A DNA stretch of 64,000 nt from a virus, in the IMG/VR virus record IMGVR_UViG_3300028666_000002; one strand, given 5' to 3'. Under the pieces are notes generated by a model. It did not search any database, was not told where the DNA came from, and saw only the letters and a list, made by a program, of their open reading frames with translations. The first letter of the stretch is position 1. The number at the start of each line of letters is the position of its first letter. The position numbers and the translations under genes were made by a program. Positions 3,434 to 42,761 of this stretch are shown here, piece by piece.

Positions 3434-5680
3434 CTATTTTGTACGAGCGTTGATGTGTTCGTGGATCGACTCTCTGCTTCCACCAGTATGGGCGGGCAAA
3501 TTAACCTTATAATTCTGACCTTTAGGCGTTTTAACAGCCCAGGTATGGAAATTGTGGTCTTTAGTAGGAGGCGAAAGCTTACGATAAGTATGGCCTTTAT
3601 GTTCTCCTAATGAGGGGTGTCCCTTAGGAAGACCATGAATATACTCGGTGCCAGGTTCAGTGGGATGATATCCGCTTTGTTTAGCATGAGAAGGATCTGG
3701 TTCATAGCTCTTCTTCATATTTTCAGATTTAGGAAGATTTGGAGAGGGCATTTGTTTCAATTCATGAAGAGCTTCTTTGTGTTTAACTCTAGCCATATGA
3801 ACGTCGGCGCCTCTATAATCTGCACCTGCAGCAGAAACTCCACCTACTCTTTTTATGCCCTTTTTTCCATAAGCAATTGCTTGATCGGCTTGTGAATGTA
3901 CGCCTATTTCATGTCCGGTTTCTGCTTTTCCAAAATAACTTGCATACATCTTAGACAGTTTGCCTTCAGCCTGAACAGTCTTTTTTAATGCCAACACTCT
4001 ACCGATAGAGTCGATTTCTCCTTCGGCCAAATGAGGCATTCTTTTCTTCATATAGTCCTTAAACTGATTCTTTTTATCCCAAGTACTATAAGCTTGATCT
4101 GCACGCTCATACCAATGCGATTTTTCTTTCTTTTTCAAAGATCCACCAAATCCAAGTGCATTGTTGAATCCTGCCTGCACTCCTTCTGCGGTTACCGGTG
4201 CAGGTGAAGGCGAAGGCGTTGGAGCCGTAGGCGCCGTATCTTTCTTTAATTCTTCTTTTTTAATCATAGCATTCATCTTAGGACGTTTTTCAAGACTTTC
4301 TTTCCCCAATGCGGCGCCGCCTACCAATTGAGAAGGTGTAGCCATTGCAGATCCAGCGGTAAGAGCTTTTTTAAGATCTTCAGATTTTCTATTGTCAGAG
4401 AATTTTTTACCTTCAATTGTTTGTTTATGACTCGGATGTATTTTCAAACCAGTCTTCTCCTCTGCGTGATTATACATAGCAGAAGCAATTCCCTTCCTGC
4501 GATGCCTATGATCGACAAAGGTTTGTACGGGGTGCAAGCGTCCACCGGATGCCTTGGAATGATGCTCACTAAGTTCGGTCTCTCCAATATGATTACCTTT
4601 ATTATCAAATGCTTGAACTAAGTGTTGGCCGCCAGTATTAAAATTTCCCTTGGCATAACGTAAGGTATATCCTTCTTTTTTCCAATCTCCATTCTCACCT
4701 TTTGCTAATTTTTTTCTTGGATTCATTGCATTGATTTGTTTTGATTGTTCATGCAGATCTTTATATCGTGCCCAATGATCTGCCATCTCTGGAGCATCGC
4801 TTTTTCCGCCTGCTTTTATATGATCGTTGATTTTTCTAGACACTGCAGCCTTTCTGGCTCCTACTCTAGTTGCAGCCCCTCTCCATCGTTTATATTCGTC
4901 ATCTTCGCCCTTATCCATTTCTTCTGACATGGCTAGTTGGCTTCCAATGAATGCTCCACCGCCAGAGGCGCCTCCACCCTGACCGCCACCCGTGCTGGGT
5001 TCGTAGCCTGCACCAACATCCATTGCGGTACCTTTTACAACTTCATTGGTTTCATTTTGAGAAGTAGGTATTCTTTCGCTTTCTTTTTTCTGAAGAATTT
5101 CTTCATAAGTAGACTCAAACTTAAACAATTCCATTTCGCCTTTGAAAAGAGAGCCAAGTAGATTGTCTTTATTTGTCGATTCCTTAGGTGACGGCATTAG
5201 TTCAGCAACGCAAGTCTTATTGCAAGGTAAATTTGTGATCGTCACTTTACGAGCAATAGAACGAGTAATAGTCATTCCCTCTTTTGCTCCGGGGATTTTT
5301 GCCCCTTCTACTGAAAAACCCACGACAGGTGGTTCGTTGGGATGTTCAGCGTCGTCTTTAAACAAAGAGGCAACTTCCAAAGCAGATGGTTTTGGGTTCT
5401 TTGGATCATCAAAAAGACGACCCATTATATAAAGGAATGGAATCTTGTACTTATTCCAAAAATATGACTGCCTATCATCTTGACAGTCTTCCTTAGAGAA
5501 AATCTTGTGGGCTTTCAATATCTTACCACAAATCTGGGAAGGACTGTCGCTTTTGTGTTCCCAATTCAGAACCGCACCAATAAGAGAGGAGGTGTCTAGT
5601 CCTTTTAGATCCACTATTTCGCCGCTTGAATCTATCGCCTGAGAAGAGGCTATTCCATCAATATAAGAACACTTATTCAT
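3434..5680 (-). CDS. Prohead maturation protease with long C-terminal extension containing a GNAT domain
   Basis: N-term GIASSQAIDSSGEIV, LNWEH, GFSVEG, VTITNLPCNKT resemble HK97/Herelle-type protease; VDHRHRRKGIASAMY is an acetyl-CoA motif A. Confidence 0.8.
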   Translation of the reverse strand: MNKCSYIDGIASSQAIDSSGEIVDLKGLDTSSLIGAVLNWEHKSDSPSQICGKILKAHKIFSKEDCQDDRQSYFWNKYKIPFLYIMGRLFDDPKNPKPSALEVASLFKDDAEHPNEPPVVGFSVEGAKIPGAKEGMTITRSIARKVTITNLPCNKTCVAELMPSPKESTNKDNLLGSLFKGEMELFKFESTYEEILQKKESERIPTSQNETNEVVKGTAMDVGAGYEPSTGGGQGGGASGGGAFIGSQLAMSEEMDKGEDDEYKRWRGAATRVGARKAAVSRKINDHIKAGGKSDAPEMADHWARYKDLHEQSKQINAMNPRKKLAKGENGDWKKEGYTLRYAKGNFNTGGQHLVQAFDNKGNHIGETELSEHHSKASGGRLHPVQTFVDHRHRRKGIASAMYNHAEEKTGLKIHPSHKQTIEGKKFSDNRKSEDLKKALTAGSAMATPSQLVGGAALGKESLEKRPKMNAMIKKEELKKDTAPTAPTPSPSPAPVTAEGVQAGFNNALGFGGSLKKKEKSHWYERADQAYSTWDKKNQFKDYMKKRMPHLAEGEIDSIGRVLALKKTVQAEGKLSKMYASYFGKAETGHEIGVHSQADQAIAYGKKGIKRVGGVSAAGADYRGADVHMARVKHKEALHELKQMPSPNLPKSENMKKSYEPDPSHAKQSGYHPTEPGTEYIHGLPKGHPSLGEHKGHTYRKLSPPTKDHNFHTWAVKTPKGQNYKVNLPAHTGGSRESIHEHINARTK

Positions 5681-6592: not shown

Positions 6593-6616
6593 TTGGTTGG
6601 ACTGGAGGGTTATACC

Positions 6617-7657
6617 ATGCAGTACACCGAAACACAGCTTTCAAAGCTTATACAGGACGTAGAACTAGAGTTCACGGCTCATTTGGCTAAGGCCGAAGAG
6701 GTCGGTAATACTCTTGCTAAGTCTGAAGATGGCGAACAGAAGCCTGAGAAAAAGCCGGAAGACGGCGAAAAGAAGCCGCCTTTCGAAGCTAAGCCCGAAG
6801 CTAAGCCCGAAGGTGAACAAAAGCCCGAAGGTGAAGAGAAACCTGAACAGGAAGCGGCGCCGGAAGGCGAAGCACATCCTGAGCAGGCTCCAAGCGAAGG
6901 CCATGATTATGATGAAGAGGACATGCAGCATATGCATAAAATGTATATGTCCATGTCAAAAGGCGAGCTAAAAGCACACCATGACGCGATTATGAAATGC
7001 GTTAGCGGTGGCGGAATGATGGGCAAGTCTGAAGAGGGTGGCGGAATTGGTAATACCAAATCTGAAAATCCTCCGCAGCCAAAAGTGAAGGGCGAGAACC
7101 TAGATTCTGATCCTAAAAATGGTGGAATTGATGCGGGTGCTCCTCACAATGCTCTTGGTCCGAAATCGCCAGCCAGCGATGCTAACGGCGCAAAGATTAA
7201 CAAATCTGAAGCTGCTAGACGAAATGGTGGAAAGATTGAAGAACAAGCGCCTCACAATTCGCCAGGTGCAAAATCACCGGCTAGCAAGGCAGATGGAGTT
7301 CAAATGCAAAAGTCAGAAAACACCGAAGTTGAGTTGCTTAAATCGGAACTTGGCTCGGCGAACACAAAATACGAAGAACTTAAGAAAAACTTTGATGGAG
7401 TTGCGGCTTTTTTGACCAAGCTGCTTGAGAAGAAAGCTGCTCCTGCAGGCAAGGCTATCACGTCCATGGATGTTATCGCGAAGAGCGAAGGCGCCGGGGA
7501 AGATAGTGAAAAGACACTTACGAAGGCTGATATTCATACCATTCTTTGTAAGAAAGCATCTGAACCTTCGTTACAGAAATCAGATAGAGACGCAATCAAC
7601 GTTTACTACGAACAAGGACAAGTAAACGTAACAGGAATTAGCCATTTGCTTAAATAG
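6617..7657 (+). CDS. Capsid scaffolding/core protein
   Basis: Acidic low-complexity protein directly before MCP, coiled coil, ~11 xK[S/A/G] motifs; ATG 6617 after GGAGG. Confidence 0.75.
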   Translation: MQYTETQLSKLIQDVELEFTAHLAKAEEVGNTLAKSEDGEQKPEKKPEDGEKKPPFEAKPEAKPEGEQKPEGEEKPEQEAAPEGEAHPEQAPSEGHDYDEEDMQHMHKMYMSMSKGELKAHHDAIMKCVSGGGMMGKSEEGGGIGNTKSENPPQPKVKGENLDSDPKNGGIDAGAPHNALGPKSPASDANGAKINKSEAARRNGGKIEEQAPHNSPGAKSPASKADGVQMQKSENTEVELLKSELGSANTKYEELKKNFDGVAAFLTKLLEKKAAPAGKAITSMDVIAKSEGAGEDSEKTLTKADIHTILCKKASEPSLQKSDRDAINVYYEQGQVNVTGISHLLK

Positions 7658-7683
7658 CAGTGGATTTTAATAAGGAGAATACA

Positions 7684-9081
7684 ATGATTGAACAACTTCA
7701 GTCACTTATGAAGGCGCTTGAAGCAGGAAGTTACAATGCTGCTCCAGGACAATTGGCTCAGGGAGCCGCTTTGATGGTCGAGGATCTCTCGCCCGTTATG
7801 CACAATGTAACGTTTGATGACAGTCATATTAAACTGCAAAAGATGCTTCCTTCGAAGGATGTGAAGTCTCAATTGCATCAGTTTAATCGTCAGTTGGATT
7901 ATGGTATCTTTGGTGGTTCGGCCCAGTTTGAAGGCGGAATCGGCGAAGAAGACACGTCTAACTATGTCCGTGCAGTGGTGCCGATGGCATACTACAGCAC
8001 GACTCGTAGAGTCACGGTTGCTGCTAACTACATCGGCGCGTTCGATGGCGTGAAGGCAGAAGATCGTGCGGCTGCGGACGCTGCGATGAAGCTCGCTGGC
8101 GATATCGAGTTCGACTCTTTCCGTGGACAGAGCGATTTCTCGAACGCGGGCGTGTTTGATGGTAACCCCCTTGCGGTTGCTAAGGTTCCGAATATGATTG
8201 GACTTGATCAACAGGTTCGTCAGTCGGACAGTCAGCAAAATACTCAGGATCTTATGTTTGCTGAATATGGTTCGGATCAGACGGTTGTACTGTCGGTCGG
8301 CGGAACTCTTACTCAGTCAGTGATCGAAGATAGTTCGGTTCGTTCGGCCATGAACATGGGCGCTGCGGACAGACTGGTTCTTGATCCGATCAGCTTGAGC
8401 GCGTATAACAAGATCGCGCACGCGAAAGAACGTATCATGCTTGCTGGCTCTGCTCAGGAAGCGACTGGTGCTCATTTGCGTACTCAGTGGACCTCTAGTG
8501 CGGTTGTCTCGCTCGAAGCTTCGCGCTTCCTGTCTGGCAAAACGCGCCCGGCGCGTCCGCGAAGTGGTAGCCCGGCGGCTCCGACGTTCACCATCGCTGA
8601 TGGTGGCCCGGCGGGTTCGTTGCTCCAAACCGGTAGCTATGCATATTATGTCACTGCGGTGACGATGCGTGGTGAGTCTCTCCCGTCTGCGGCGCAGACT
8701 CAGGCTGTTACGGCTGGCGATAAGGTCACTCTGACCATCACCGGTACGGGACAGTACTACTGCGTGTATCGCTCGGATCTCGGTGGAACGGCAGCGGTTG
8801 CCAAGTTCATCGGTAAGGTCGCGGCGAATGGCGCTGGATCGGGTGCGACGTTCACGGATCTCGGAAATCGTCAACCTGGCTCGGTCACGGGCTTCTTGGT
8901 TCAGGCGAATACGATGGGATTCGGACAGTTGGCTCCTTACAGCAAGCTGAAACTTGCGGTTAGCGATCTGTCACTTCCGGAGGCTCATTTCCGCTTCTTG
9001 TCCTTGGCTGCATACCAACCGAGGAAGAACGTGATCCTTGAGAATATCACGGGTCAGTTGGCTCCGAATAATCCTACGTAA
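7684..9081 (+). CDS. Major capsid protein (Herelleviridae/SPO1-like, with Fn3-like insertion)
   Basis: KALEAG...GAALMVEDL N-arm, YAYYVTAV..GES insertion, PRKNVILENI C-term; ATG 7684 after AAGGAG; terminator follows. Confidence 0.9.
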   Translation: MIEQLQSLMKALEAGSYNAAPGQLAQGAALMVEDLSPVMHNVTFDDSHIKLQKMLPSKDVKSQLHQFNRQLDYGIFGGSAQFEGGIGEEDTSNYVRAVVPMAYYSTTRRVTVAANYIGAFDGVKAEDRAAADAAMKLAGDIEFDSFRGQSDFSNAGVFDGNPLAVAKVPNMIGLDQQVRQSDSQQNTQDLMFAEYGSDQTVVLSVGGTLTQSVIEDSSVRSAMNMGAADRLVLDPISLSAYNKIAHAKERIMLAGSAQEATGAHLRTQWTSSAVVSLEASRFLSGKTRPARPRSGSPAAPTFTIADGGPAGSLLQTGSYAYYVTAVTMRGESLPSAAQTQAVTAGDKVTLTITGTGQYYCVYRSDLGGTAAVAKFIGKVAANGAGSGATFTDLGNRQPGSVTGFLVQANTMGFGQLAPYSKLKLAVSDLSLPEAHFRFLSLAAYQPRKNVILENITGQLAPNNPT

Positions 9082-13794: not shown

Positions 13795-14550
13795 ATGAAC
13801 AAGAAATTCTATGTATATTGTCACAGAAATCCGGAAAATAATCAAGTCCAATATATTGGGAAAGGACAGGGAAGAAGAGCCTATTCACTAACAAAACGTA
13901 GTGCCGCACATTTGGAATGGATAGGCCTGTTATCTAAAAAAACATTGAAACCTATAATTGATATTATAGAATATTTTGATAATGAAAAGGATGCTTTAAA
14001 CAAAGAAATAGAATTAATTAAATATTACAAACATTTAGGAGTTCAATTATTAAACATTTCCGAAGGTGGTTCGCCTGGTTCAGGCTTAACTGGACAAAAA
14101 AATGGAGCTTACGGTAGAAAAAGATTTGATTTAATAAAAAGAAATCAGGCAAATAAAGGCAAAACATTAACAGAAATTTATGGAGAACAACGGGCCATAG
14201 AAATAAAAAAGACTCTATCAGAAGCCACCATTGGTGAAAATAATCCAATGTATGGAAAATCTGGCGAAAATGCACCTTGTTTTGGTAGAAATGGTGAATT
14301 GCACCCTATGTATGGCAAAAAACACAAAGAAGAATCTAAGCTTAAAATAAGCATTTCCTTAAGAGAAAATAGGGGCATAAAAATTCAATGTTCTAATGGT
14401 ATTGTTTATGCTTCTTTATCTCAAGCTGCGAAAGAATTACATATAGGAAGAAAATATATATCTGAAATTTTGAAAAAATCAAGAATTAGCCACAAAGGGC
14501 TAACATTTCAATATGTTAACTCAACTATTGGAAATCTCAAGCAATCTTAA
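13795..14550 (+). CDS. GIY-YIG homing endonuclease (NUMOD3/NUMOD1)
   Basis: YVY..YIGKG..R, E..LI...N; NPMYGK repeats; C-term HTH; AT-rich. Confidence 0.85.
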   Translation: MNKKFYVYCHRNPENNQVQYIGKGQGRRAYSLTKRSAAHLEWIGLLSKKTLKPIIDIIEYFDNEKDALNKEIELIKYYKHLGVQLLNISEGGSPGSGLTGQKNGAYGRKRFDLIKRNQANKGKTLTEIYGEQRAIEIKKTLSEATIGENNPMYGKSGENAPCFGRNGELHPMYGKKHKEESKLKISISLRENRGIKIQCSNGIVYASLSQAAKELHIGRKYISEILKKSRISHKGLTFQYVNSTIGNLKQS

Positions 14551-15928: not shown

Positions 15929-16675
15929 ATGGCTAATAAAGTCGGAGAAGGCGTACATGACATCTACAAAGAACGAGCCCAGCAGGGTGGAGATGTTCTG
16001 TGGCATGTTAAGATAAAGGGCCAAACAGAATTGATGGAAGGGGTTCCTCTTCACATGTCCTTAAAAGTTTTTAATGACAAAAAAGAGATGAATCTTGATG
16101 AAATAAAAGAAAAGGTTAAAAAGTTTGATATAAAAACGCCAAACCCAGAGAAATTGAGATTTAAGACTACGATTTTTACATCTGAAAGAGATGGAAAAAA
16201 GTATTTTATGCTTCTGGTGGAAGGCGCAGATAAGACTTATGAAGATTTTTACAACAGCCTAAAGCATTGTGGAACTGTTTACGATAAATTCATGACTCAT
16301 ATTACTATAGATAAGGGATTGTACGATAAGATAAATGAAGAAGGATTAAAACCAGACGAAGTGGAGTTTAGCGTTCTTTCTATCGAATTTGGGGCTGGAA
16401 ATACAGTCCATGAGTTCAAGAAAAGTTTAGATGTAGAGATAATGAAAGAAACCATCTGTTTAAACTTAGATTTGTCTATAAAGCATTTTAGCGCATCTAT
16501 GTTGAAATCAGAAGTTTTTTGCAATTATTTAGAAGATCATCCGGGATTAGAACAGCAAATTGAACAAAAGCACAAAGATAGAATAGAGCATCATTTTGGT
16601 AATGATGAAAAATTAAAAGATTTCGCTTGGAAAAATGGAATAGATGCTGCTTACGCATCGAGGAATAAGAAGTAA
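15929..16675 (+). CDS. 2H phosphoesterase (Acb1/LigT-like) with C-terminal extension
   Basis: LHMSL and THITI motifs about 80 aa apart; tail with FKKSLD and MLKSEV. Confidence 0.6.
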   Translation: MANKVGEGVHDIYKERAQQGGDVLWHVKIKGQTELMEGVPLHMSLKVFNDKKEMNLDEIKEKVKKFDIKTPNPEKLRFKTTIFTSERDGKKYFMLLVEGADKTYEDFYNSLKHCGTVYDKFMTHITIDKGLYDKINEEGLKPDEVEFSVLSIEFGAGNTVHEFKKSLDVEIMKETICLNLDLSIKHFSASMLKSEVFCNYLEDHPGLEQQIEQKHKDRIEHHFGNDEKLKDFAWKNGIDAAYASRNKK

Positions 16676-17292
16676 TGGGTTTTGTATATAAAATAACCAA
16701 TATATTGACTGATAAAAAATATATTGGTCTTACCACAAGAAGCCTAGAGGAAAGATTTAGAAAACATCTTTTTGACGCTTTTGATGCACGAAGAAAAAAT
16801 GCTATTCACTATGCTTTAAGAAAATATGGTAAGAAAAATTTTGTTATAGAGGCAATTTTTGAAAGCAATTCATTAAATGAATTAAATGATAAAGAGAATT
16901 ATTTTATACAAAAATATGACACTTTGTATCCTAATGGTTATAATTTGATAGTTGGTGGCGGCGTTCGTATAGTATCAGAAATTACAAAAAACAGAATGAG
17001 AAAGGCACAATTAGGTAAAAAGCAATCTAAAAAAACAAGAAAAAAGAGATCTGACTCTCTAAAGGGCAAACCTCAAAAAAGGGTTTTTGTAAATAAAAGA
17101 GCTAAATCTATATGTAAACCTATTATGGAATTAACAACTGGTTTAACATTTAATTCTATTAAAGAATCAGCGAAATATTTTAATATAAGTTCTAGGGGTA
17201 TAAGCAAAAATCTTCACAACCAATCTGTTCATTATTTTGGTAAAAAATTTATTTTCCTAGATAAAGGAGAGTTTCATGCAAATAACAGCTAA
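16675..17292 (+). CDS. GIY-YIG homing endonuclease
   Basis: VYKITN..KKYIGLT..ERF..H, E..FI..GYN, NUMOD3. Confidence 0.9.
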   Translation: MGFVYKITNILTDKKYIGLTTRSLEERFRKHLFDAFDARRKNAIHYALRKYGKKNFVIEAIFESNSLNELNDKENYFIQKYDTLYPNGYNLIVGGGVRIVSEITKNRMRKAQLGKKQSKKTRKKRSDSLKGKPQKRVFVNKRAKSICKPIMELTTGLTFNSIKESAKYFNISSRGISKNLHNQSVHYFGKKFIFLDKGEFHANNS

Positions 17293-19631: not shown

Positions 19632-20630
19632 ATGTCTAATGCTGATCTATTTTTAAAGAAAGCTCTAGGTGAAGATTTTTTTGAATCTTTAGCCAAGGTC
19701 GAACTGTATAAATATGGCACCAGAAGCGTATTAGATATTGAAGAAATCAAAACGGCACTCCAGATAGTTCCTCGCACTATTATCGCCCTTCTTATCAGAG
19801 AGCTTAGTCCCATGAATGTGGGTGATACCAAAGAAATTCCTCTCCTTGTGGGCGTTAATGCTATGATTAGGGCTACTAAACATGAGAGAGATTGTTTTAG
19901 TGGTGATGTTGAAGAAGATTCCAAGAAAATAGCAGAATTCAAATTTAGATCCTTGCCTGGGGTTGGCTTGATAATCATGTCCGCCTTTGAACTTTACGAT
20001 ATGGAGAATCTGATTAACTCTCCAAGTGCATCAGATTTGCCAATGGCACCTGCCCCACTTTCACAGCCTAATTTCGCAGAAGATATCGACAGTAAAGTAC
20101 AAAAGCTCATAGATGAAAGATTGGCCCTTCACAGTCTTGTTGAACAGGTTGTAGAAAAAAAGATAGCACACAAAGATGCTATTCACCAGATGATGTTGGC
20201 TAAGCTTACAGAAGAAATCAGTTCTTTAAAAAATAAGATGGTAGTTGTGTCTGCCAAAACAGAATTGGCTAGAAAAGAGGCAGAAGTGGCTAAACAACTA
20301 AATCCAGCTGTATTTGAGATTGAGGAAGAAAAAGAAACGCCCACTCCTATGAAGAAAAGTCGGCCTTTGCAAGAATTCTTGGAAAAGAGAAAGAAACCTA
20401 AAGAATTCTCTGTACAGATGGCAAAGGGAGAGATGGTTTCTTGTCCAGATTGTGGCAAGGACATTTTTAATGGAAACTCACTAACTCCTTGTATTTGTTA
20501 TGGAGATTATGGTAAAATATTTTTGAAGAAGACGGAGAATGGAATAAAAGTTAGATTCTCTAGAAGTTGGGATATTGATAATATAGAAATGTTATTAGAA
20601 GTATTGAGAAAAAAGAATAAACATGTCTAA
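19632..20630 (+). CDS. Hypothetical head-associated protein (coiled coil + CPDC..CIC zinc finger)
   Basis: LKKAL, MKKS and MAKGE motifs. Confidence 0.5.
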   Translation: MSNADLFLKKALGEDFFESLAKVELYKYGTRSVLDIEEIKTALQIVPRTIIALLIRELSPMNVGDTKEIPLLVGVNAMIRATKHERDCFSGDVEEDSKKIAEFKFRSLPGVGLIIMSAFELYDMENLINSPSASDLPMAPAPLSQPNFAEDIDSKVQKLIDERLALHSLVEQVVEKKIAHKDAIHQMMLAKLTEEISSLKNKMVVVSAKTELARKEAEVAKQLNPAVFEIEEEKETPTPMKKSRPLQEFLEKRKKPKEFSVQMAKGEMVSCPDCGKDIFNGNSLTPCICYGDYGKIFLKKTENGIKVRFSRSWDIDNIEMLLEVLRKKNKHV

Positions 20631-21423
20631 AAAAATTACAATAGAAGAGATCCAAAAAAGAATTTTGAAGATTCACGGGAATACTATTGTTTTAGATATA
20701 GACACTTACGTAGATACTCATACTCGTGCACGTTTTATAGATAGGGAATGTGGAGAATGGTGGGCTATACCAAAAAATGTGTATGGTTTAAAGAATGGTC
20801 ACCCAAATAAAAGAGCAAAAAAAATAAGTAAATCAAAAACTTTAACTATAGATCAGGTAAAAGAAAAAATAAGAGAAAAACACGGAAATTCTGTTATTTT
20901 GATTGAATCTACCTATATAAACACTATTACAAAATGTAAATTTATAGATGAAAAATATGGTGAATGGGAAACTGTTTCACTTAATGTTTTGTATGACAAC
21001 TGTAGGCATCCCAATGGCGGGAAAGAAAGGCGAGAAAATGCTCTCTTAAAGAGTTATGGCGTAAAAAATGCCACTCAAAATAAAGAGATAGCCTTGAGGG
21101 CTGCTAAAAGTGCCAAAAATACTTATATAAAATTCCACTGGAAAACGAATGAAGAACTTGTGTGTCAAGGTTCTTGGGAAGCAAAGGTGGTGGATTATTT
21201 TAATACCAACAAAACCGAGTACGATTGGCAATCTAAAACATTTGCTATGCCAGATGGTAAAACTTATAGACCTGATTTATTTTTAATTAATGAAAATAAA
21301 TGGGTAGAAATCAAGGGAAGATTTAGAATTACGGACAAGTTAAAATGGGAGTGGTTTAAATCTGAAAACCCTACAGCAGAAGTCTGGCAAAAAAGTAAGC
21401 TAAAAGAAATGGGAATTTTATAA
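20623..21423 (+). CDS. PD-(D/E)XK-type homing endonuclease
   Basis: Two N-terminal repeats (I...HGN.I.L...TY....T...FID...GEW), C-term YRPDLFL..WVEIKG. Confidence 0.75.
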   Translation: MSKKITIEEIQKRILKIHGNTIVLDIDTYVDTHTRARFIDRECGEWWAIPKNVYGLKNGHPNKRAKKISKSKTLTIDQVKEKIREKHGNSVILIESTYINTITKCKFIDEKYGEWETVSLNVLYDNCRHPNGGKERRENALLKSYGVKNATQNKEIALRAAKSAKNTYIKFHWKTNEELVCQGSWEAKVVDYFNTNKTEYDWQSKTFAMPDGKTYRPDLFLINENKWVEIKGRFRITDKLKWEWFKSENPTAEVWQKSKLKEMGIL

Positions 21424-21424
21424 C

Positions 21425-23503
21425 ATGGATAAATCAGATAACATTGTATACATATCTTACGATGCGGATAGTGCGGGTCGCAAAATCGGTCAAGCGGTTT
21501 TGAACGATGATCCTGATGAAATGTCCAGAATTTCTGAACGCATTAAGGTCGGCAACGATCTGTTTAGCCGATGGGCAAAAGAACGAGATGGTAAGCAATA
21601 TTCTTCTGGTGGCGATCAAGGCGTATACGCTATTGATAAAAAGCATGTTGAAGGATTGGAAAAGCTAAGAAAGGATTACCACTATCTTACCGGCTTAACC
21701 GTATCTATAGGAATAGGTGTCCATCTATCCGAATCGGGACAAGCCCTCTTAATGGCAAAGTTAAAAGGGAAAAATCAGATAGTGTCTTTTGACAAAGAAA
21801 CAAAGAAAGAGATTCAGCAAATAAAAAAGCGAGTTAAGAAAGGAAAATTTAAGTCCATGGAAGAATATAAGATTGCAGAATCTTACCTGGACAAATCTGA
21901 GGCGGTTAAATCTATGAAAAAAGCTGAAAGTATCAATAATCAGAAATTAGAGGATGCTACTGAAACCGCCAATTATCAAGAGAAGCCAGAGGCTACTCAT
22001 GATGATTGTGAATATTGCAATCATCAAGAGAAGCCAGAGGCTACTCATGATGATTGTGAATATTGCAATCAAACTGATGGGATTGATCCTAATCATTGTG
22101 AATTTTGTCATGATGCTGAAACTGCAGAAGGTGAAGAGCCCTGCGAATTTTGCGATAGTTCAAAAGAATTAAATAATCCCGAAGCGTGTGAGTTTTGCAA
22201 TAGTGCTGAAACTCCAGAAGGCGAAGAGCCTTGCAAATTTTGTAGTTATGATGAGCCAGTAGATGAGGCGTTAGATTTTCCTGAGTTGGCAGAACAAGAT
22301 GATGAATTTGCTAATGCCCCTGAAAACCAGGGCTATGGAGAAAATGTAAAAACTCATCCAGACGGTCTTGGTACGAGCCTTGATTCCAACAATGATCAAG
22401 CTCCCGCTGGTTCGCCAGAAGAACATGAGCAATATGAAAAAATGGGAATGACTCCGCCAATGATAGGAAAGCCTACTTCTGAAGATCATGCCCCGCTCGG
22501 CCAAAATGCTCCCATGGCCTATGGTGCTGCTCCAGAATCAGCTAATGAAGATCCAGATGCAGAAACATTGGCCTATCAAGATCCTAGGGCCGCTGAAGGG
22601 GAAGCTGCAATAGATCCAGAAGATAATCATTCTAAAGAGGCCTTACTATCTATCGCTAGTGAAATAGAAAATGATGGTAATCCTCCCGCCCATGAAGCTG
22701 ACAGCATAGACGATACTCAAATTACTAATGATAGAATGGAAGGCAACACTAGTAGGCCAGATGGGTTCGAACAAAACACTCCTAGTGATATGGGCACAGC
22801 TGGTCCTAATAATACCGATCCAAATGATAACGAACCAGACTTTTATGGTGTTTTAGAGGAAGGTTTGAATCATGACGCCGATGGTATTCAAAAAGAAAAG
22901 GCTATCAAGTCTGTTTCTCAAGCACTAATGCAATTCAAGGGCTGTAAAGATATGCTAGAACAGTCTAAGGCTCAGATGCCACAACTTTATCAGGCTTCTA
23001 TTTCTATGCTAAAAGCCATGATTGAAATGGCTACTATGCTCGGATTAGGACAAAGCGGGGCCGGATTAGGACAAGAATCAGGACAAAATTCTGAATTAGG
23101 ACAAACACAAGAATCTCTGATGCCAGAACAACCTGAGCAATCGGCACAGCCCCAACAGGAGAATGACTGGCATGAGCCCTTTCCTACACATCCAGATCAG
23201 GGTGGAGAAGCTAAGCCCGGTCACGCGCCGTCTAGCAATGAAGAGGAGGATTCTCCCTCCCCACAGTCCCAAGCCGGTAGCGTAGGAACGCCTATCGGCA
23301 AATTATCAGCCAAACACACTACCGAACACGTTGCTAGAAATCCGATGCCAATAGGAGCAATCAATGTTTCTGGTCAGCAGAAGGTTATGGATGATCAGGG
23401 TAAAATAAGATTCATCGATAGAAAGCAAGGTCTTGTTATGGGTCCGTCTGGGGTTCCCGTAAAGCCTCCAAAAATGGGCAATGAAGTTTCTAAAAATAGG
23501 TAA
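21425..23503 (+). CDS. mCpol (minimal CRISPR polymerase/GGDEF-like) domain fused to Cys-rich and acidic head-protein region
   Basis: YISYDADSAGRKI, SGGDQG, TVSIGIG..LSESGQALLMAKLKGKN; followed by LDKSE/MKKAE motifs. Confidence 0.7.
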   Translation: MDKSDNIVYISYDADSAGRKIGQAVLNDDPDEMSRISERIKVGNDLFSRWAKERDGKQYSSGGDQGVYAIDKKHVEGLEKLRKDYHYLTGLTVSIGIGVHLSESGQALLMAKLKGKNQIVSFDKETKKEIQQIKKRVKKGKFKSMEEYKIAESYLDKSEAVKSMKKAESINNQKLEDATETANYQEKPEATHDDCEYCNHQEKPEATHDDCEYCNQTDGIDPNHCEFCHDAETAEGEEPCEFCDSSKELNNPEACEFCNSAETPEGEEPCKFCSYDEPVDEALDFPELAEQDDEFANAPENQGYGENVKTHPDGLGTSLDSNNDQAPAGSPEEHEQYEKMGMTPPMIGKPTSEDHAPLGQNAPMAYGAAPESANEDPDAETLAYQDPRAAEGEAAIDPEDNHSKEALLSIASEIENDGNPPAHEADSIDDTQITNDRMEGNTSRPDGFEQNTPSDMGTAGPNNTDPNDNEPDFYGVLEEGLNHDADGIQKEKAIKSVSQALMQFKGCKDMLEQSKAQMPQLYQASISMLKAMIEMATMLGLGQSGAGLGQESGQNSELGQTQESLMPEQPEQSAQPQQENDWHEPFPTHPDQGGEAKPGHAPSSNEEEDSPSPQSQAGSVGTPIGKLSAKHTTEHVARNPMPIGAINVSGQQKVMDDQGKIRFIDRKQGLVMGPSGVPVKPPKMGNEVSKNR
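21975..22070 (+). repeat. Perfect 48-bp tandem duplication (QEKPEATHDDCEYCN x2)
   Basis: Identical units starting at 21975 and 22023. Confidence 0.95.
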
Positions 23504-23506: not shown

Positions 23507-24256
23507 ATGTCTTTAAGAATTAAGATAGATGTTCAATCTCTTTCAAAGCAATTAAAAGAATATGCTATGGAAGCAGAAGCAGATATGAGGAAAGGGGTAG
23601 CCAATCTATCTGCTTTATCTCATGCTAAAATTAGAGATCTAGCTGCAGAAAAATTACATTCTACCAGAAATACATTTTTAGACAATCTATCTCAAGTAGA
23701 GGAAGTGGTTCCTGGCGTATTTGTTATAACATTGAATGAAGCAGCATTATTTATAGAAGAAGGGATGGAAAGACATGATATGAAGCCCGATCTTTTAAAG
23801 AAGAATGCTAAAGTGGGCAAAAATGGAAGATATAAGATAATTCCATTCGAACATTCTAAACTTCCGCAGAACATGACTGGAAAAGAACAGAATATAGTAC
23901 AACAAATTAAACAGAAATTGAAGGAAGAAAAAGTACCATTTAAGAAAATTGAATATGACGCAAAGGGAAATCCTAAAACAGGAAAGCTTCATAGTTTTAA
24001 TTGGGGTGGAGAAAGGCCCGGCAAGGGCAATACTGGAGTCCTACAAAGAGTTAGTATTTATCAATCAAAAGGGCCTACAGGAAATATTCGTAGAGATATA
24101 ATGACATTTAGAACGGTGAGCGAAGGACAGACAGATAAGTGGTACCATCCAGGAATTAAAGCGGCGAAAATATTAGATGAAGCTGGAGACTGGGCTGAAA
24201 AAGAATTTTACAATTCAATACTTCCAGAAATCATTGCAAAATGGAATGGTAGATAA
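23507..24256 (+). CDS. Neck/tail-completion protein (HK97 gp10-like)
   Basis: IEEG...DMKPDLL, IIPFEH, TFRTVS..W.HPG motifs. Confidence 0.65.
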   Translation: MSLRIKIDVQSLSKQLKEYAMEAEADMRKGVANLSALSHAKIRDLAAEKLHSTRNTFLDNLSQVEEVVPGVFVITLNEAALFIEEGMERHDMKPDLLKKNAKVGKNGRYKIIPFEHSKLPQNMTGKEQNIVQQIKQKLKEEKVPFKKIEYDAKGNPKTGKLHSFNWGGERPGKGNTGVLQRVSIYQSKGPTGNIRRDIMTFRTVSEGQTDKWYHPGIKAAKILDEAGDWAEKEFYNSILPEIIAKWNGR

Positions 24257-25022
24257 ACAATAATCCTTTTACAGATTTCATTTTCCCTTTACAAACTTTC
24301 ACTATATCACTATTGTCACATTTATTTTTTGCAGCTGCTTCTATAATTGAATTATAGATTTCCAAAATAATCCTGTCTGAATTAATTTTTGCTACCCTCT
24401 TATTGTTTGTAATAGGTTTATTTTTTGGTATTGATTTTTTTCTCGGTAGTACTGCATCTATTTTTTTATTTTTAAAAAATTTCCACTGATATCCGCCAGC
24501 ACTTTTTTTCTTTCCTTTACAACATTTTCCTATATCGGAATTGTTAATATTGGTAATTAAAAAAGCATCTGCGCTAGAAGAATGTTCTTTTATAAAAAAA
24601 CCATCTTTCGTATATTGATATACAGGGATAAGGTGTGCCTCTCTTATTTTTCTTTTTTGATCTGCGCTGTGTTTCCTACCTTTTCCGGCTTTAGACAAAA
24701 GTTTGCGGGTTTCATCTGATATAAAACTCCCCCTACCATTACCTCCACTTGATAAGTTATAGCCATTTTTCATAGAATTATAGTATTCTATCCAATAAAT
24801 TTCTTTATTATTGAGATCTTCCAATGAATCTGCCGTATCTATAGTCTCTATTTTAAAGTTTTCAACCCCATATTTTTTGATAGCAAAAGAAAGTTTTCTA
24901 CATCCTCTATCGGGCTTTAAGTGATATTTAAAATGTTCTAAAACTCTTTCTTCTACCGTTCTAGTAGTTTGACCTATATAGCTTTTGCCATCTATGATAT
25001 TAGTAAGTTTGTAGACATACAT
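24231..25022 (-). CDS. GIY-YIG homing endonuclease (NUMOD3, 2x NUMOD1), antisense to operon
   Basis: VYKLTN..SYIGQT..ER..H, EIYWI..GYN. Confidence 0.9.
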   Translation of the reverse strand: MYVYKLTNIIDGKSYIGQTTRTVEERVLEHFKYHLKPDRGCRKLSFAIKKYGVENFKIETIDTADSLEDLNNKEIYWIEYYNSMKNGYNLSSGGNGRGSFISDETRKLLSKAGKGRKHSADQKRKIREAHLIPVYQYTKDGFFIKEHSSSADAFLITNINNSDIGKCCKGKKKSAGGYQWKFFKNKKIDAVLPRKKSIPKNKPITNNKRVAKINSDRIILEIYNSIIEAAAKNKCDNSDIVKVCKGKMKSVKGLLFIYHSILQ

Positions 25023-25110
25023 ATAGAAAAGATTGTGTTAGGCATTTCGAAAATGGGAATCTCATACACTAATCTTAATATAAATATTCAAATAAATCAA
25101 TAGGGTAATT

Positions 25111-26124
25111 ATGGGATTTTTTCCGTCAGATGCAGTGCTACAAACGGTCGTTAGGCTGTTTTTAGATGATATGCGCAATAATATATGGTTGATCGATCAT
25201 ATGATGGAAGATTTTGTCAAAAATCCTTATCTCAAGAAAGCATATGGTCAGAAACAGATCGATGCATGTAAGGAATTTCTCCTTAATAATCAAATAGATG
25301 TTTATGTAGGATGGCAATCTGGCAAAATAAAACCACCATGTATTTCCATAGGATTAGGGCCGATGCCAGAGCGCGAAGGTCTAAAATTCATGGCCGATAA
25401 GGATACGGAAGAGATTGTTCTTCTTCCTAATGAGATTGGTAAACCGATAGCCTATATGGTTAAACCCTTTGTTCCTACTGGTTACGATGAAACCACAGGG
25501 GAATTGGGATTACCAACAAATATAGAGATAGACCAGATAGCTCCTGGGATGGTTTTAGTTAACCCAACCAATGCTATTGGATATACTATACAAAGTATAA
25601 CGGCAAATAGTTTATTTATCGATCCTGGACTAGCCATAGATGCTAGCAAACTTGGGATTCTTCCTCGTTATCCCTTTTATAAAGCTAGAGTGGAACATAC
25701 CTATTCAACTGGCAATTACAATATCATCTGTACGGCCCATGGCGACCCCCAAAATGCCATTTGGCTACACGACATCACCTTATATGGTCTTTTACGTTAT
25801 AAAGAGAGTTTACTAGAAGCCCTAGGACTTTCTGAAACAGTAATGTCTTCGGGACCGTTGGAAGTTAATCAAGAATTAGGCACTCCTGGTGGGGATACTG
25901 TTTGGGATAGAACCATTTCTCTCGTGGGTCAAATTGAAAATACATTTATAAAACAACCGCATCGTCTCATCGAAGTAATTAATTTTAAAAAGAAAATAGG
26001 CAAAGGTCCAAAATCTGGTTGGACTGGCGGCATTATCTTCTTGGCTAATAAAACCACACCAGCTTTCATGATGGATAACGATGAGCCTTGGTCTACCGTG
26101 GAAGATGATGATTCCGAAGATTAA
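25111..26124 (+). CDS. Putative tail terminator/sheath stabiliser
   Basis: PCISIGLG motif; position upstream of sheath. Confidence 0.5.
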   Translation: MGFFPSDAVLQTVVRLFLDDMRNNIWLIDHMMEDFVKNPYLKKAYGQKQIDACKEFLLNNQIDVYVGWQSGKIKPPCISIGLGPMPEREGLKFMADKDTEEIVLLPNEIGKPIAYMVKPFVPTGYDETTGELGLPTNIEIDQIAPGMVLVNPTNAIGYTIQSITANSLFIDPGLAIDASKLGILPRYPFYKARVEHTYSTGNYNIICTAHGDPQNAIWLHDITLYGLLRYKESLLEALGLSETVMSSGPLEVNQELGTPGGDTVWDRTISLVGQIENTFIKQPHRLIEVINFKKKIGKGPKSGWTGGIIFLANKTTPAFMMDNDEPWSTVEDDDSED

Positions 26125-26486: not shown

Positions 26487-26563
26487 GATTAATAAAATCA
26501 AATACTTAAGGTAAATACTAGGCAGGGGCACACAATCTTAACACTAGGTATGGAGACTTGAGC

Positions 26564-27610
26564 ATGGCTAATTCAGATAAACAGCTTACGGCAAAACAAG
26601 TGGCGACTGCTGTATTAGAAAAAGTAGGCGAACTTCTGCACAAATGTGAGCTTATGAAGGCAGAAAGTTACAAACCTCAAAATTCTGGTAAAGAAAATGC
26701 TAAGCCATCTGAACATAACTCTAAAGATGCTATGCAACATGCTGATGGACCGGGGCCGAAGGGTGAAATTCATCCTAAAGAAACAGAGGTTGGGGCGCCG
26801 ACCAATGAAAGCAGGCCTACTCCTGCTCCGGGAAATAACCCGAAAGAAAAGGCGGAAGGCAATAACGAGCTTGCAGGCACCACGCCAACTCAAGTTGGTC
26901 AAGATGGAAAGAATAAGCCTGGATATGATGAAATGAAAGGCCACCTAAAGTTGGCAAAGTTTATTGGACGTATGGAAGGGAAGAGAGAAAGAAATCTTTC
27001 TAATACGCAGACTCAAGGAGAGTCAACGACTCAACATAAAGAAGTTGTTAGCGGGATGAATAAATCAGAAGATTTGGCAAAAGCCGAAGCATTTAACCCT
27101 GCTAAAGCTACGGCACCTGCGGCTACGGCTGCAAAGCCGGGGTCTGCTAATTCTCCGACTAAAACTAACACAGAAACTGGTGGTTCAAGCCCCGGTGGCG
27201 CTTCAACGGGCGGAGTCGGAAGCGGTCTTGGTGGTGCTGGCACAGGCGGCGCCGCAACAGGCGGCGCTTCTACCGGTGGTGCTGGCACGGTAAATGTAAC
27301 AATTTCTGGTAGTAGCAGTACGGATACGAGTTCTGGAGCCGGTGCTAAAAAAGGTGACGGCGGTGGCAAACCTGCAGCCCCAATCACCATCAATATAAGC
27401 AATGTTGGTGGTACAACCGATGCTGGTAATGTTGCAAGCGGTGACGGTCCTGGTGCTTCGGGTTCAGGCGGTACTGCTCCGAATGGCTTTGGTGGTGGCG
27501 GCGGCGGAGCTTCTCCAGATGAGCCAAAGAATTTTAGTACGCAAGGCAAAGATAAGATGGTGAAGAGTCAGTACGGTATGCACACTCTTGAATGGCGCAA
27601 GGCTAACTAA
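26564..27610 (+). CDS. Low-complexity Gly/Ser-rich head-associated protein
   Basis: LMKAE, MNKSE, LAKAE and MVKSQ motifs; ATG after GGAG. Confidence 0.55.
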   Translation: MANSDKQLTAKQVATAVLEKVGELLHKCELMKAESYKPQNSGKENAKPSEHNSKDAMQHADGPGPKGEIHPKETEVGAPTNESRPTPAPGNNPKEKAEGNNELAGTTPTQVGQDGKNKPGYDEMKGHLKLAKFIGRMEGKRERNLSNTQTQGESTTQHKEVVSGMNKSEDLAKAEAFNPAKATAPAATAAKPGSANSPTKTNTETGGSSPGGASTGGVGSGLGGAGTGGAATGGASTGGAGTVNVTISGSSSTDTSSGAGAKKGDGGGKPAAPITINISNVGGTTDAGNVASGDGPGASGSGGTAPNGFGGGGGGASPDEPKNFSTQGKDKMVKSQYGMHTLEWRKAN

Positions 27611-27894: not shown

Positions 27895-30045
27895 ATGTCA
27901 TTACGACTAGTTACGCCTTTTATTAATACAAATATTCCAGGAAGTTATCCGAATATTATTGTGCAGAGCCAGCCCGTTGGATTGGGTAGCTCTGGCGTGG
28001 TTGTCATCATGGGAGAAGCCGCTCAGGGTCCTAGCTATCAGCAGATCCCGTTAAAGACCAACTATTTTACTCCTAATCAGCTTGCTCTTGTTACGCAAAT
28101 CTACGGTAGCGGACAAATTGTTGATGCCTTTACTGCTTTGGCCGCTCCTTCTAATGATCCAGATATCACGGGTACAGCCAATCAAGTTTACGTTGTGAAG
28201 ACTAACACTGGAACCATCGCATCTGCTGCTATTCCTGGTGGTTATGGAACTCTATTTTTTAACAACTATGGTACTCCCGGAAATAACTACGCATATCAAG
28301 TAACGAATACTCAGACCGAAGTTACTCCGACCGTTGGCGGAAATACAGTCCCTGCTTTTGGCGCACCTCTTAACGGCGCAAGTTTCACTCTTAGAATGAA
28401 TGGATTTACTGGGGCAGTAGTTACCCTGAGTGCTACTCCCGCACTGCATGCCAATATTGGTACTTTGATTACGGAACTCAATGGATTACTTCCCGCTGGA
28501 ATTACGGCTAGTCTTGGGGTGGCACTTAATAGTCTTCAACTTACCATGGCAGTTGATCCGGGTGCGAATGCAGAAGGATGGGGTAAATCATTTGAATTGA
28601 TTGATTCCACTCCTGGCGATCTCGCTTCTCTTGGGTTGGCGGCTGGACTTACGGTATCTGCTGCAGAACCGGCGATTGAAGTTGTAACTTCTAATTCTGG
28701 AGTAAATTTTAGCGAAACCTTAGACATCGCTTCTGAAATTGGTTTGCAAATTGGATATCAGGGCACGACTGCTTTGATGACAATCAACGCCACATCGCTT
28801 ATCACTACGGTTGCTGGTGGAGTTGGTGCGAGTCTGAATATTACCCTTAGCCAATTTAATACGTTGGCAGGCTTGGTAGCTTTCATTCAAACGCAGCCAG
28901 GTTATACGGTCAGCGTTTCTGCTGCAGTTCAACAGCTGTCGCCAAGTATTCTGGATCAGGTGGCTGCGATTGGTATCGCTTCTACTGGTACATCGCTTAT
29001 GCCTGGCCGAGTTAAGATAGCATTGTATAATTTTGAAACTGCGTTGGGCACCTCAAAAGCTTTGGTTTTCACAAATACCGCACATGCGGGATTGCCAAGT
29101 TCGATGAGCCTTCCGGCTTTACTGGCTGGTGGCGGAAGAGGACCCACGCTTGCGGCAGATATCGTTAATGCATTGGCGCAAATGGCCGGTATTAATGTTA
29201 ATATCATTGTTCCGTTATTTTCGCAAGATGCATCCAGAGATATTACTGCGGGGATGACATCTTCAGCGTCCACATATACGATTGCGGCTATCAACGCACT
29301 GACAAAGAGTCACTGCATCGAGTATAGCACACCACAATTGAAAAAGAATCGTCAAGCGATTCTCTCAATGTTAGATACCTACGCTAACGACAAAAGTGAA
29401 GCACAAGGACTTGCATTTTATCGTTGCTCTCTTACGATGCAACAGATTCAGCAAGTTAATTCCCAAGGAGTTATTACAACGTTTCAGCCTTGGTACGCCT
29501 CATGCTTGGCGGCGGGTATGCAAGCGGGTGGTTTCTATAAAGCCATCGTTAATAAAGCGGCCAATATCATCAGTTATATCGACCCGGTTGGGTTTGATTC
29601 GGGCGATCCCGGCGATGTGAGTGATGCTCTTTCTGCTGGTCTGCTTTTCCTGTCAACAGATACGAGCAGGGCGGGTTACTGGGTCAGTGATCAGACTACG
29701 TATGGCTATGATACTAATTTTGTTTACAATAGTATCCAAGCTGTGTATACATCCGATCTCGTTGCCCTTGATCTGGCACAAAGCTTCTGGTTACAGTTCG
29801 GCGGTCAATCAGATGCCGATGTTACCGCAGCTTCTGGATTGGCATTCTTAGGCCAAAAGATGGCTGGCTATCTAGCGCTTAAGCTTATTGGTTCAAGCAG
29901 CGATGCGCCGCTTGGATGGAAGAATCCGAATATTATTATCAATGCACCAGAAATGGATGTGTCGGTGGAAATTAAGCTCAGTACGGCAATTTACTTTATT
30001 CCGCTTAACATCAACGTTTCGCAGATAATGAATTCGGCAAGTTAA
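27895..30045 (+). CDS. Tail sheath protein
   Basis: PG.YP, VVIMGEAAQGP, VSDQTTY, IYFIPLNI; 716 aa followed by 152-aa tube. Confidence 0.9.
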   Translation: MSLRLVTPFINTNIPGSYPNIIVQSQPVGLGSSGVVVIMGEAAQGPSYQQIPLKTNYFTPNQLALVTQIYGSGQIVDAFTALAAPSNDPDITGTANQVYVVKTNTGTIASAAIPGGYGTLFFNNYGTPGNNYAYQVTNTQTEVTPTVGGNTVPAFGAPLNGASFTLRMNGFTGAVVTLSATPALHANIGTLITELNGLLPAGITASLGVALNSLQLTMAVDPGANAEGWGKSFELIDSTPGDLASLGLAAGLTVSAAEPAIEVVTSNSGVNFSETLDIASEIGLQIGYQGTTALMTINATSLITTVAGGVGASLNITLSQFNTLAGLVAFIQTQPGYTVSVSAAVQQLSPSILDQVAAIGIASTGTSLMPGRVKIALYNFETALGTSKALVFTNTAHAGLPSSMSLPALLAGGGRGPTLAADIVNALAQMAGINVNIIVPLFSQDASRDITAGMTSSASTYTIAAINALTKSHCIEYSTPQLKKNRQAILSMLDTYANDKSEAQGLAFYRCSLTMQQIQQVNSQGVITTFQPWYASCLAAGMQAGGFYKAIVNKAANIISYIDPVGFDSGDPGDVSDALSAGLLFLSTDTSRAGYWVSDQTTYGYDTNFVYNSIQAVYTSDLVALDLAQSFWLQFGGQSDADVTAASGLAFLGQKMAGYLALKLIGSSSDAPLGWKNPNIIINAPEMDVSVEIKLSTAIYFIPLNINVSQIMNSAS

Positions 30046-42407: not shown

Positions 42408-42761
42408 TTATGGATATTTTACTTTCAACGCTTCAACAGTTTCTTTGGGTAATTGCCTGTACTCCCATGGTACTCCCGCAGCTTCTGCTCTTTCTACCCC
42501 TTGTTTCATTCCATTGGAAATGCCGAAATCATCGTAAATAACTACAAGATCTGCTACGTATGTCCAAACCCAACCTGCAGCCATTCCAAGTTGGCGCTGT
42601 TCTTTATCGTTATCATCCAGCAATCCAGGTTGTGTCCACAAAAGATGAGATGCTATTGGAGCCTCATGTCTCTTAAGGCAATCCAACAAGCAAGCCTTGG
42701 CATAAGCTATATTACGGGGAATGTTTCCCGCGAAAGGCGATTCTAAGATGACTCTTTTCAT
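42408..42761 (-). CDS. Nucleoside 2-deoxyribosyltransferase-like fold protein
   Basis: VILESPFAG, APIASHLL, D.GIS.GM..G. Confidence 0.6.
   Translation of the reverse strand: MKRVILESPFAGNIPRNIAYAKACLLDCLKRHEAPIASHLLWTQPGLLDDNDKEQRQLGMAAGWVWTYVADLVVIYDDFGISNGMKQGVERAEAAGVPWEYRQLPKETVEALKVKYP

Follow-up and report, generated by a model that had tools for sequence, protein, structure and literature searches.

An mCpol-type cyclase domain on an acidic carrier protein in the late structural block of Mx1-like myoviruses

The subject of this report is an open reading frame (ORF) at positions 21425-23503 of a 64,000-nucleotide (nt) stretch of viral DNA, IMG/VR virus record IMGVR_UViG_3300028666_000002, the whole of which is referred to here as the window. 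The first 157 amino acids (aa) of the predicted protein are almost certainly an mCpol-type palm-domain nucleotidyl cyclase, related to the OptS enzyme of the bacterial defence system Panoptes, and they are followed by a long acidic tail. The gene occupies a fixed place among the genes for joining head and tail. The favoured reading of this arrangement, to which a probability of about 0.5 is given, is that of an active mCpol which is packaged by its carrier, freed by the prohead protease and delivered to the host.

Until now, the only role described for mCpol was that of constitutive synthase in a bacterial guard system which senses phage tampering with cyclic nucleotides. A literature search returned no description of a phage-encoded or virion-module mCpol. 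The Nature papers on Panoptes (PMC12657218, PMC12657230) and the type II paper do not mention a phage mCpol, and the automatic annotation of the Joint Genome Institute (JGI) names the domain on a few homologues. What is new is a known enzyme family in a new carrier, in a new context and with a new, probable mode of deployment. The mCpol described here is catalytically intact by sequence, is fixed in a large phage clade and is tied to particle-building genes and a probable head-protease site, which suggests that phages, too, make and perhaps deliver such nucleotides.

The N-terminal mCpol domain

A reading made from the sequence alone had placed an mCpol cyclase domain at positions 21425-21900. 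This span corresponds to aa 1-158, the folded N-terminal domain of the 692-aa ORF, and the assignment is upheld by sequence, profile and fold. The Pfam family mCpol (PF18182) is matched over aa 9-121 (model positions 1-113/114), scoring 45.3 bits (E=1.3e-11) where the gathering threshold is 26.4. A family profile built from the first 160 residues of 21 homologues finds the OptS structures 9mnr and 9pd0 at E=3.6e-15 and 9nwn at E=7.5e-15. The AlphaFold2 (AF2) model of the N-terminal segment reaches a predicted local distance difference test (pLDDT) value of 92.3, and its top Foldseek match is the OptS chain 9pd0_C (E=5e-9, target template modelling (TM) score 0.88, root-mean-square deviation 1.6 Å). 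When mCpol, GGDEF and Cas10 folds are compared in this search, as the sequence-only reading had proposed, OptS chains are the best matches, followed by GGDEF and Cas10/Csm1 palms. The match to PF18182 and OptS is far beyond chance, and all features testable in silico identify the domain as an mCpol.

The strings on which the earlier assignment was based are all found in the ORF, namely YISYDADSAG (aa 9-18), SGGDQG (aa 61-66) and TVSIGIG...ALLMAKLKGKN (aa 92-117), and LDKSE and MKKAE lie where they had been described, with the acidic region after them. The metal-binding Asp residues had been regarded as intact, and this is borne out by a hidden Markov model alignment to 9mnr in which D13 and D64 land on D6 and D57 of KpOptS. 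It has been reported from assays of wild-type and mutant enzyme that these two KpOptS residues are catalytic and that their mutation abolishes product formation (PMC12657218). Given the conserved catalytic residues, the phage palm is likely to be catalytically competent.

A GGDEF diguanylate cyclase was considered and rejected as an alternative. The motif here reads GGDQG, the protein has no match to Pfam GGDEF (PF00990) at E<=1, and GGDEF structures are second-tier in the fold search.

The palm and the two basic helices behind it form a basic unit (aa 1-157) of 17.8 kDa with an isoelectric point (pI) of 9.2, the stretch from aa 123 to 157 having a net charge of +5. Prediction of aa 1-158 as a homodimer gave a score of 0.44 versus 0.35 for the control, which speaks neither for nor against a dimer.

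Distribution and conservation of the family

A word-indexed search retrieved 51 full-length homologues with 32-100% identity, all of them metagenomic, on contigs of up to 177 kb; nearly all carry PF18182. In an exhaustive phmmer search, 797 representative clusters (defined at 50% identity) were found at E<=1e-3, 556 of them at E<=1e-10. Most of these matches cover aa 8-160, the two basic helices included, in proteins of 300-1100 residues.

Across 21 diverse homologues there is no variation at D13, D15, G18, G62, G63, D64, T92, G96, K112, G115 or K116. The motif GGD[EQD] is kept in 145 of the 154 homologues retrieved, and 141 of the 154 keep both DxD..G and GGD[EQD] in this order. The N-terminal domain is the best-conserved part of the protein, with a mean column identity of 60% versus 32% for the protein as a whole. 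Some distant members have a polyvalent-like architecture, in which mCpol is combined with NUDIX and DUF5661 (P0151) or with DUF5661 (P0052). In homologues with an internal mCpol (P0081, P0097, P0099 and others), the N-terminal extensions show no similarity to the genes neighbouring mCpol in the window.

Searches of 50,697 deposited phages by blastn and tblastn, with the gene and with aa 1-145, returned nothing at default thresholds; the orthologue in Myxococcus phage Mx1 was found only in a local tblastn. Among the 185,579 genomes of GTDB (one per species) there is a single strong match, which lies in a metagenome-assembled genome (MAG) of 'Deltaproteobacteria' from a bog, on a phage-like contig of 69 kb. 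The family therefore belongs to free phages and not to cellular genomes. In the phylum to which this MAG belongs, 2 of 131 genomes contain PF18182, one of the two being the MAG with phage contigs, and the host link which it offers is weak.

Position in the structural block

The window is part of a large myovirus, encoding a major capsid protein, tail sheath, tube, rIIA and many GIY-YIG/HNH homing endonucleases. Mx1 (169.6 kb) is its only cultured relative, and the genes neighbouring mCpol have matches to Mx1 only. Synteny was compared across 38 loci, comprising 33 IMG/VR contigs and the loci L001-L005. The mCpol gene is followed by the gene for a 249-aa protein in 36 of the 38, by that for a 337-aa protein in 36, by the sheath gene in 34 and by the tube gene in 31. 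Upstream, three conserved genes are present in 26-30 of the loci and the capsid gene lies 9-10 kb away. From this synteny, the mCpol gene is a fixed member of the head-to-tail joining block and not a movable accessory gene. The acidic tail accordingly is part of a late structural block that is fixed in Mx1-like myoviruses, beside the neck genes, where it would act as a carrier.

The gaps between the mCpol gene and its neighbours measure 1-3 nt, and a scan for promoters and terminators around the gene found sites no more numerous than in shuffles. The HNH gene directly upstream is missing from this place in L001; it is a homing-endonuclease insertion and lies outside the conserved block. For the 249-aa protein downstream, there is a lead to an HK97 gp10-like (tail-completion/neck) protein.

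The syntenic orthologue in Mx1 is WNM70340.1 (468 aa). Its palm scores only 21 bits and carries the substitutions D13->S, D64->A, K112->Q and K116->G. As all four of these residues are replaced, the Mx1 palm is probably inactive. Mx1 also has a stand-alone GGDEF 'nucleotide cyclase', WNM70324.1, which hints at the replacement of one cyclase by another in this phage. No stand-alone GGDEF gene is seen in the window among the matches listed from a Pfam scan of its 98 ORFs.

The acidic tail

The remainder of the protein (aa 158-692) has a mass of 57.9 kDa, a pI of 4.2 and a net charge of -73. In the AF2 model, pLDDT is below 50 from aa 157 onwards. The CxxC motifs at aa 195-273 are likely zinc knuckles; there are six here versus a modal number of five among homologues. 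The disordered region which follows (aa 286-472) contains the conserved short motifs MGMxPPxIGKP, IDPEDNHSKEA and EGNxSRPxG..QNTPxDMG. Behind it lies a helical hairpin, present in 29 of the 38 related loci, and the protein ends in a C-terminal module with a small beta hairpin, which reaches pLDDT ~80 inside an otherwise poor model (overall pLDDT of the tail 60).

Apart from the helical hairpin and the beta hairpin, the tail as modelled is without an assignable fold, since the model is poor and a Foldseek search of viral models returned nothing below E=0.04. A profile of the tail had no match to PDB sequences at E<=1, and by BLASTP the tail has no similarity to the scaffold protein of the window. 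In PHROGs, neither the whole protein nor the tail matches a family; aa 1-142 have a single weak, unannotated match (phrog_14697, E=0.006).

Predicted frameshifting in related phages

Among 29 related loci with the C-terminal module, 12 have it in frame, 14 have it in the -1 frame and 3 in the +1 frame. Of the -1-frame loci, 13 were examined; in 12 of them a heptamer read in the zero frame, C CCA AAA or C CCA AAG (for the peptide DPK), precedes the stop by a few codons. The position of the heptamer just before the stop supports a predicted programmed -1 frameshift in those relatives, from which a short and a long product would arise. Products of two lengths in a fixed ratio are typical of virion assembly proteins. 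Both the window and the 99%-identical IMG/VR contig L010 have the module fused in frame; no frameshift is needed, so that only the long form is expected here.

A putative prohead-protease motif

The pattern [LIVM]xK[SAG]E, to which both LDKSE and MKKAE conform, occurs at 22 sites in the 98 ORFs of the window versus 4.25 +/- 1.9 in composition-preserving shuffles (n=200, maximum 10 sites), an excess of about 5-fold. The scaffold-like protein upstream of the capsid gene contains eight of these sites where 0.24 are expected (P<5e-5), and a protein with a protease-like N-terminus fused to a GNAT domain contains four where 0.28 are expected (P=1.5e-4), three of the four lying in the stretch that separates these two parts. 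The capsid protein has LQSLMK/ALEAG near its N-terminus, the slash here and below marking the putative point of cleavage. The excess recurs in L001 (14 sites versus 1.5, seven of them in a scaffold fragment) and in Mx1 (15 versus 1.8), where three sites lie between the domains of a 1479-aa GNAT-ART-NUDIX polyvalent protein. From this enrichment, a putative protease motif LxK/[SAG]E is deduced. As a sequence rule it would allow head-packaged cargo to be predicted in this poorly known group of phages.

In 36 of 38 close homologues of the mCpol protein, the K..GK motif is followed ~43 residues later by the site, with a variable residue at the x position; the site coincides with the onset of disorder in the AF2 model. 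Short motifs of the prohead protease are known to mark head and ejection proteins in SPN3US, phiKZ and T4 (PMC10052503). The enrichment, the conserved site and the analogy to these three phages together suggest that the mCpol protein may enter the prohead and be cut directly after the enzyme domain. Packaging through the prohead can reasonably be inferred, at roughly even odds. The sequence-only reading had called the product an internal head protein. This view gains from the agreement of LDKSE and MKKAE with a conserved site and with a motif enriched in scaffold and protease; it does not fit so well with a gene placed among those for the neck and tail completion.

Two further genes of the window are of note in connection with the motif. 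The ORF at 26558-27610 (+), between the terminator-like gene and the sheath gene, encodes a 350-aa low-complexity protein rich in Gly, Ala, Ser and Thr, with three sites where 0.10 are expected (P=1e-4); it is a candidate for another protease substrate encoded outside the head module. The protease-GNAT gene (3434-5680, -) is on the opposite strand to the scaffold and capsid genes, and its 748-aa product, with LxK/GE motifs between its domains, looks like a protease-linked cargo polyprotein.

Proposed function and alternative explanations

In the favoured reading, the palm would condense nucleoside triphosphates, most likely ATP, into a cyclic di- or oligonucleotide in the manner of OptS, with D13/D15 and the GGD64 hairpin acting together with a divalent metal. 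The acidic carrier would take the protein into the assembling prohead, where the prohead protease would cut at LDK/SE and MKK/AE, directly after the folded domain. The basic enzyme would thereby be left free in the capsid and be delivered with the DNA into the next cell. There, the nucleotide which it makes would interfere with host nucleotide-based immunity or signalling, either by keeping guard-type effectors silenced or as a decoy. This action in the host is, even as a general idea, tentative. A phage-made, possibly delivered nucleotide which interferes with signalling is nevertheless the most economical reading of an intact and strongly conserved cyclase. The fullest version is unlikely as a whole: the capsids of Mx1-like phages would contain an active mCpol, which is released by the head protease and injected together with the DNA, and as early as the first minutes of an infection the invader itself would be making a cyclic nucleotide of the immune type. 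If true, the injected enzyme could hold guards of the Panoptes kind 'off' or swamp the receptors of the cyclic oligonucleotide-based antiphage signalling system (CBASS) or of type III systems. Such an immune-signal synthase, delivered by the virion, would be the first of its kind and would add a layer to the nucleotide arms race.

Several points weigh against the favoured reading, of which packaging, cleavage and activity are all conditional steps. The gene is found among the neck genes rather than the head genes, and the excess of the motif within the mCpol protein itself is modest (two sites versus 0.21 expected, P=0.018). In systems of the SPN3US type, the N-terminal piece is usually a discarded propeptide (PMC10052503). 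More distant homologues have YLxP in place of the candidate protease site, and the motif sites of the Mx1 orthologue come after the hairpin. Mx1 shows that the carrier can persist without catalysis; as the only cultured relative has a probably inactive copy, it provides no model for the enzyme. Finally, the Pfam scan of the window gave no receptor or effector for the product among the matches listed.

The same observations can be explained by an enzyme which is never packaged. A late cytoplasmic mCpol would supply its nucleotide in the producing cell during late infection, perhaps holding guard effectors inactive as host signals are depleted by phage sponges or nucleases, or setting the timing of lysis or exclusion, and the tail would regulate or localise it. 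Such a role agrees with an intact, conserved palm encoded in a late operon, with the constitutive activity of OptS-type enzymes (PMC12657230) and with the fact that packaging itself is something we infer. It is rather unlikely, as it leaves unexplained the strict placement among neck genes (36 of 38 loci), the two-length carrier set by frameshifting in relatives, the conserved protease-type site at the domain boundary and the polyvalent-type architectures of distant members. Those features of placement and frameshifting also agree with a protein of mainly structural or assembly role, in which the palm would be a module for oligomerisation or for binding nucleotides or DNA ends in a neck or head-completion component, helped by the zinc knuckles, and signal synthesis would not be the selected function. 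As a core syntenic gene beside gp10-like and terminator-like genes, with -1 frameshifting in its relatives as is typical of assembly proteins, mCpol would be well placed for this. Mx1 retains the protein despite the loss of both catalytic Asp and both Lys residues, and KpOptS is a tetramer in solution (PMC12657218). A purely structural role would not need the complete or near invariance of the catalytic residues that is seen across hundreds of divergent clusters, nor would the palm be expected to be the best-conserved part of the protein, and the lost activity of Mx1 may be replaced by its separate, intact GGDEF cyclase in the head module. A mainly structural protein is consequently considered distinctly unlikely.

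The sequence-only reading had raised, as a counter-counter-defence, a more specific model, in which a virion-delivered mCpol resupplies the Panoptes antidote, 2',3'-cyclic di-adenosine monophosphate or cyclic triadenylate (cA3), so that a phage carrying a sponge or nuclease escapes killing. The phage domain does belong to the same enzyme family as OptS and has the same catalytic residues, and Panoptes is triggered by the loss of the mCpol product (PMC12657218, PMC12657230). Panoptes is described as relatively rare (PMC12657218), and an accessory counter-defence gene directed against such a system would not be expected to be a core gene fixed throughout a large clade of phages. The model also has to contend with the retention of the protein in Mx1 after loss of both catalytic Asp residues, with the low frequency of PF18182 in the candidate host phylum, to which the link is itself weak, and with a window that has no S-2TMbeta, CARF or SAVED partner and no sponge or Acb-type gene among the Pfam matches listed. 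In this specific form, resupply of the antidote is improbable. The favoured reading, a packaged and delivered cyclase, makes a broader claim on host signalling.

Comparison with known systems

Panoptes OptS (9mnr, 9pd0, 9nwn; PMC12657218, PMC12657230, PMC13577387) is the best match of the phage domain in both sequence and fold. The two share the same minimal Cas10-like palm of ~115 residues at 26% identity, with the DxD motif and the acidic residue of the hairpin in common. The phage domain differs in retaining the GGD motif, which is largely lost in OptS, and in its fusion to two extra basic helices and a 535-residue acidic tail. Its setting is a structural block of a virulent-type phage, in contrast to the two-gene defence operon of bacteria.

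The possibility that the locus is itself a Panoptes system was rejected. Among the matches listed for the 98 ORFs (25/26 families), the Pfam scan gave no S-2TMbeta, CARF or SAVED gene. The immediate neighbours of mCpol are a homing endonuclease and the gp10-like protein, with no adjacent effector and no S-2TMbeta or CARF-TM operon partner, and the context in 38 loci is a phage structural block rather than a chromosome or defence island.

Cas10 of type III CRISPR systems has the palm fold in common with mCpol. Relatives of the phage protein have sub-threshold Pfam matches to Cas10-Cmr2_palm2, and Csm1 is among the Foldseek matches. The phage protein, in contrast, consists of a single minimal palm without HD or other Cas10 domains, a CRISPR RNA complex or a CARF effector.

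The GGDEF domains of phage polyvalent proteins have been predicted to be delivered in the virion and to interfere with host nucleotide signalling (PMC5512222). These domains and WNM70324.1 of Mx1 are likewise related palm cyclases carried by phages beside virion genes, and the architecture of mCpol with NUDIX and DUF5661 in distant members of the mCpol family is polyvalent-like. The protein of the window differs from the polyvalent GGDEF proteins in having a single recognisable enzymatic domain (by Pfam), which is of the mCpol type. The GGDEF gene of Mx1 lies at a different locus from mCpol, in the interval between protease and capsid genes.

In T4 (Alt and internal proteins) and in SPN3US and phiKZ (ejection proteins), a short protease motif is common to cargo, scaffold and protease, as in the window, and the enzyme studied here would possibly travel in the head and enter the cell along with the DNA in the same way. 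It differs from them in that the putative motif is LxK/[SAG]E and not that of T4 or SPN3US, the gene is among neck genes and the enzyme makes up the N-terminal piece, the part usually discarded as a propeptide in those systems. The predicted frameshift can be compared to that of lambda G/GT, as the heptamer of the -1-frame relatives likewise opens a C-terminal module. The locus here differs in lying upstream of the sheath instead of between tube and tape measure, and in the window the module is in frame.

Features of the locus and other genes of the window

Table 1. Coordinates of the mCpol gene, its parts and related features; positions refer to the window unless another record is named.
Feature	Position	Strand	Remarks
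Whole ORF	21425..23503	+	692 aa, 75.7 kDa, pI 4.5; mCpol domain and acidic carrier tail
mCpol palm domain	21449..21790	+	aa 9-122; Pfam, PDB profile match to OptS, AF2 and Foldseek
First metal-binding motif D13-A-D15	21461..21469	+	D13 = KpOptS D6; invariant in alignments A1 and A2
GGD hairpin motif G62-G63-D64	21608..21616	+	D64 = KpOptS D57; invariant in alignments A1 and A2
Two basic helices after palm	21791..21886	+	aa 123-154; OptS without these; AF2 helices 124-138 and 145-154
LDKSE, candidate prohead-protease site LDK/SE at fold/disorder boundary	21887..21901	+	aa 155-159
MKKAE, second candidate prohead-protease site	21914..21928	+	aa 164-168
48-nt tandem duplication	21970..22071	+	2.1 copies, 98% identical; one extra CxxC unit
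Six CxxC motifs in acidic segment	22007..22243	+	aa 195-273
Acidic, proline-rich disordered region	22280..22840	+	aa 286-472, net charge -37
Conserved helical hairpin	22841..23038	+	aa 473-538; AF2 on alignment A3, pLDDT ~80 there
C-terminal module GxPIGKL..TTxHVAR..GQQKV..RFIDRK	23282..23500	+	small beta hairpin aa 651-665; in frame here
Prohead-protease-like N-terminus fused to GNAT	3434..5680	-	748 aa; 4 [LIVM]xK[SAG]E sites
Scaffold-like acidic protein	6593..7657	+	directly upstream of capsid gene; 8 [LIVM]xK[SAG]E sites
Major capsid protein	7660..9081	+	52% identical to capsid protein of Mx1
HNH-type homing endonuclease	20623..21423	+	phrog_559/945; directly upstream of mCpol gene
Downstream neighbour, 249 aa	23507..24256	+	Atlas features 0.93, structure TM 0.45-0.62
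Tail-terminator-like protein, 337 aa	25111..26124	+	Atlas: SP10_terminator 0.94, neck terminator, T4 gp15
Tail sheath	27895..30045	+	phrog_279
Mx1 orthologue of mCpol carrier	L002 (OR576727.2) 23964-25370		both catalytic Asp gone
Mx1 stand-alone GGDEF 'nucleotide cyclase' WNM70324.1	L002 (OR576727.2) 7174-7905		between protease and capsid genes, motif intact
Loci with slippery heptamer			L005, L013, L015, L016, L023, L026, L027, L029, L031, L032, L034, L035

At least six genes for GIY-YIG/HNH homing endonucleases are present in the window, at 13795-14550, 16675-17292, 20623-21423, 24231-25022 (-), 30620-31423 and 32412-33221. This load is unusually dense for a structural module, and two of the genes flank the mCpol gene block.

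Two other proteins are probably fibre or host-recognition proteins. The first (10647-12779, +) has 710 aa, with three CHB_HEX_C/Fn3-associated repeats and an ice-binding-like domain (E=6e-65), and the second (50018-51103, -) combines collagen repeats with PA14.

A Thg1-family tRNA-His guanylyltransferase is encoded at 48478-49326 (-; Pfam E=1.9e-30); Thg1 is a palm-domain relative of GGDEF and Cas10. Together with a protein containing a cREC_REC 'cyclic-phosphate processing receiver' domain (51941-52321, -; E=1.1e-19), it may form an RNA or tRNA repair module. Near the start of the window, an enzyme of the NAMPT/NAPRTase family (983-2461, -) adjoins a phosphoribosyltransferase resembling phosphoribosyl pyrophosphate synthetase (2489-3262, -), and the pair resembles the phage module for salvage of nicotinamide adenine dinucleotide (NAD) which is used against NAD-depleting defences. 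A DUF7768 protein is encoded at 42408-42761 (-; E=2.3e-28).

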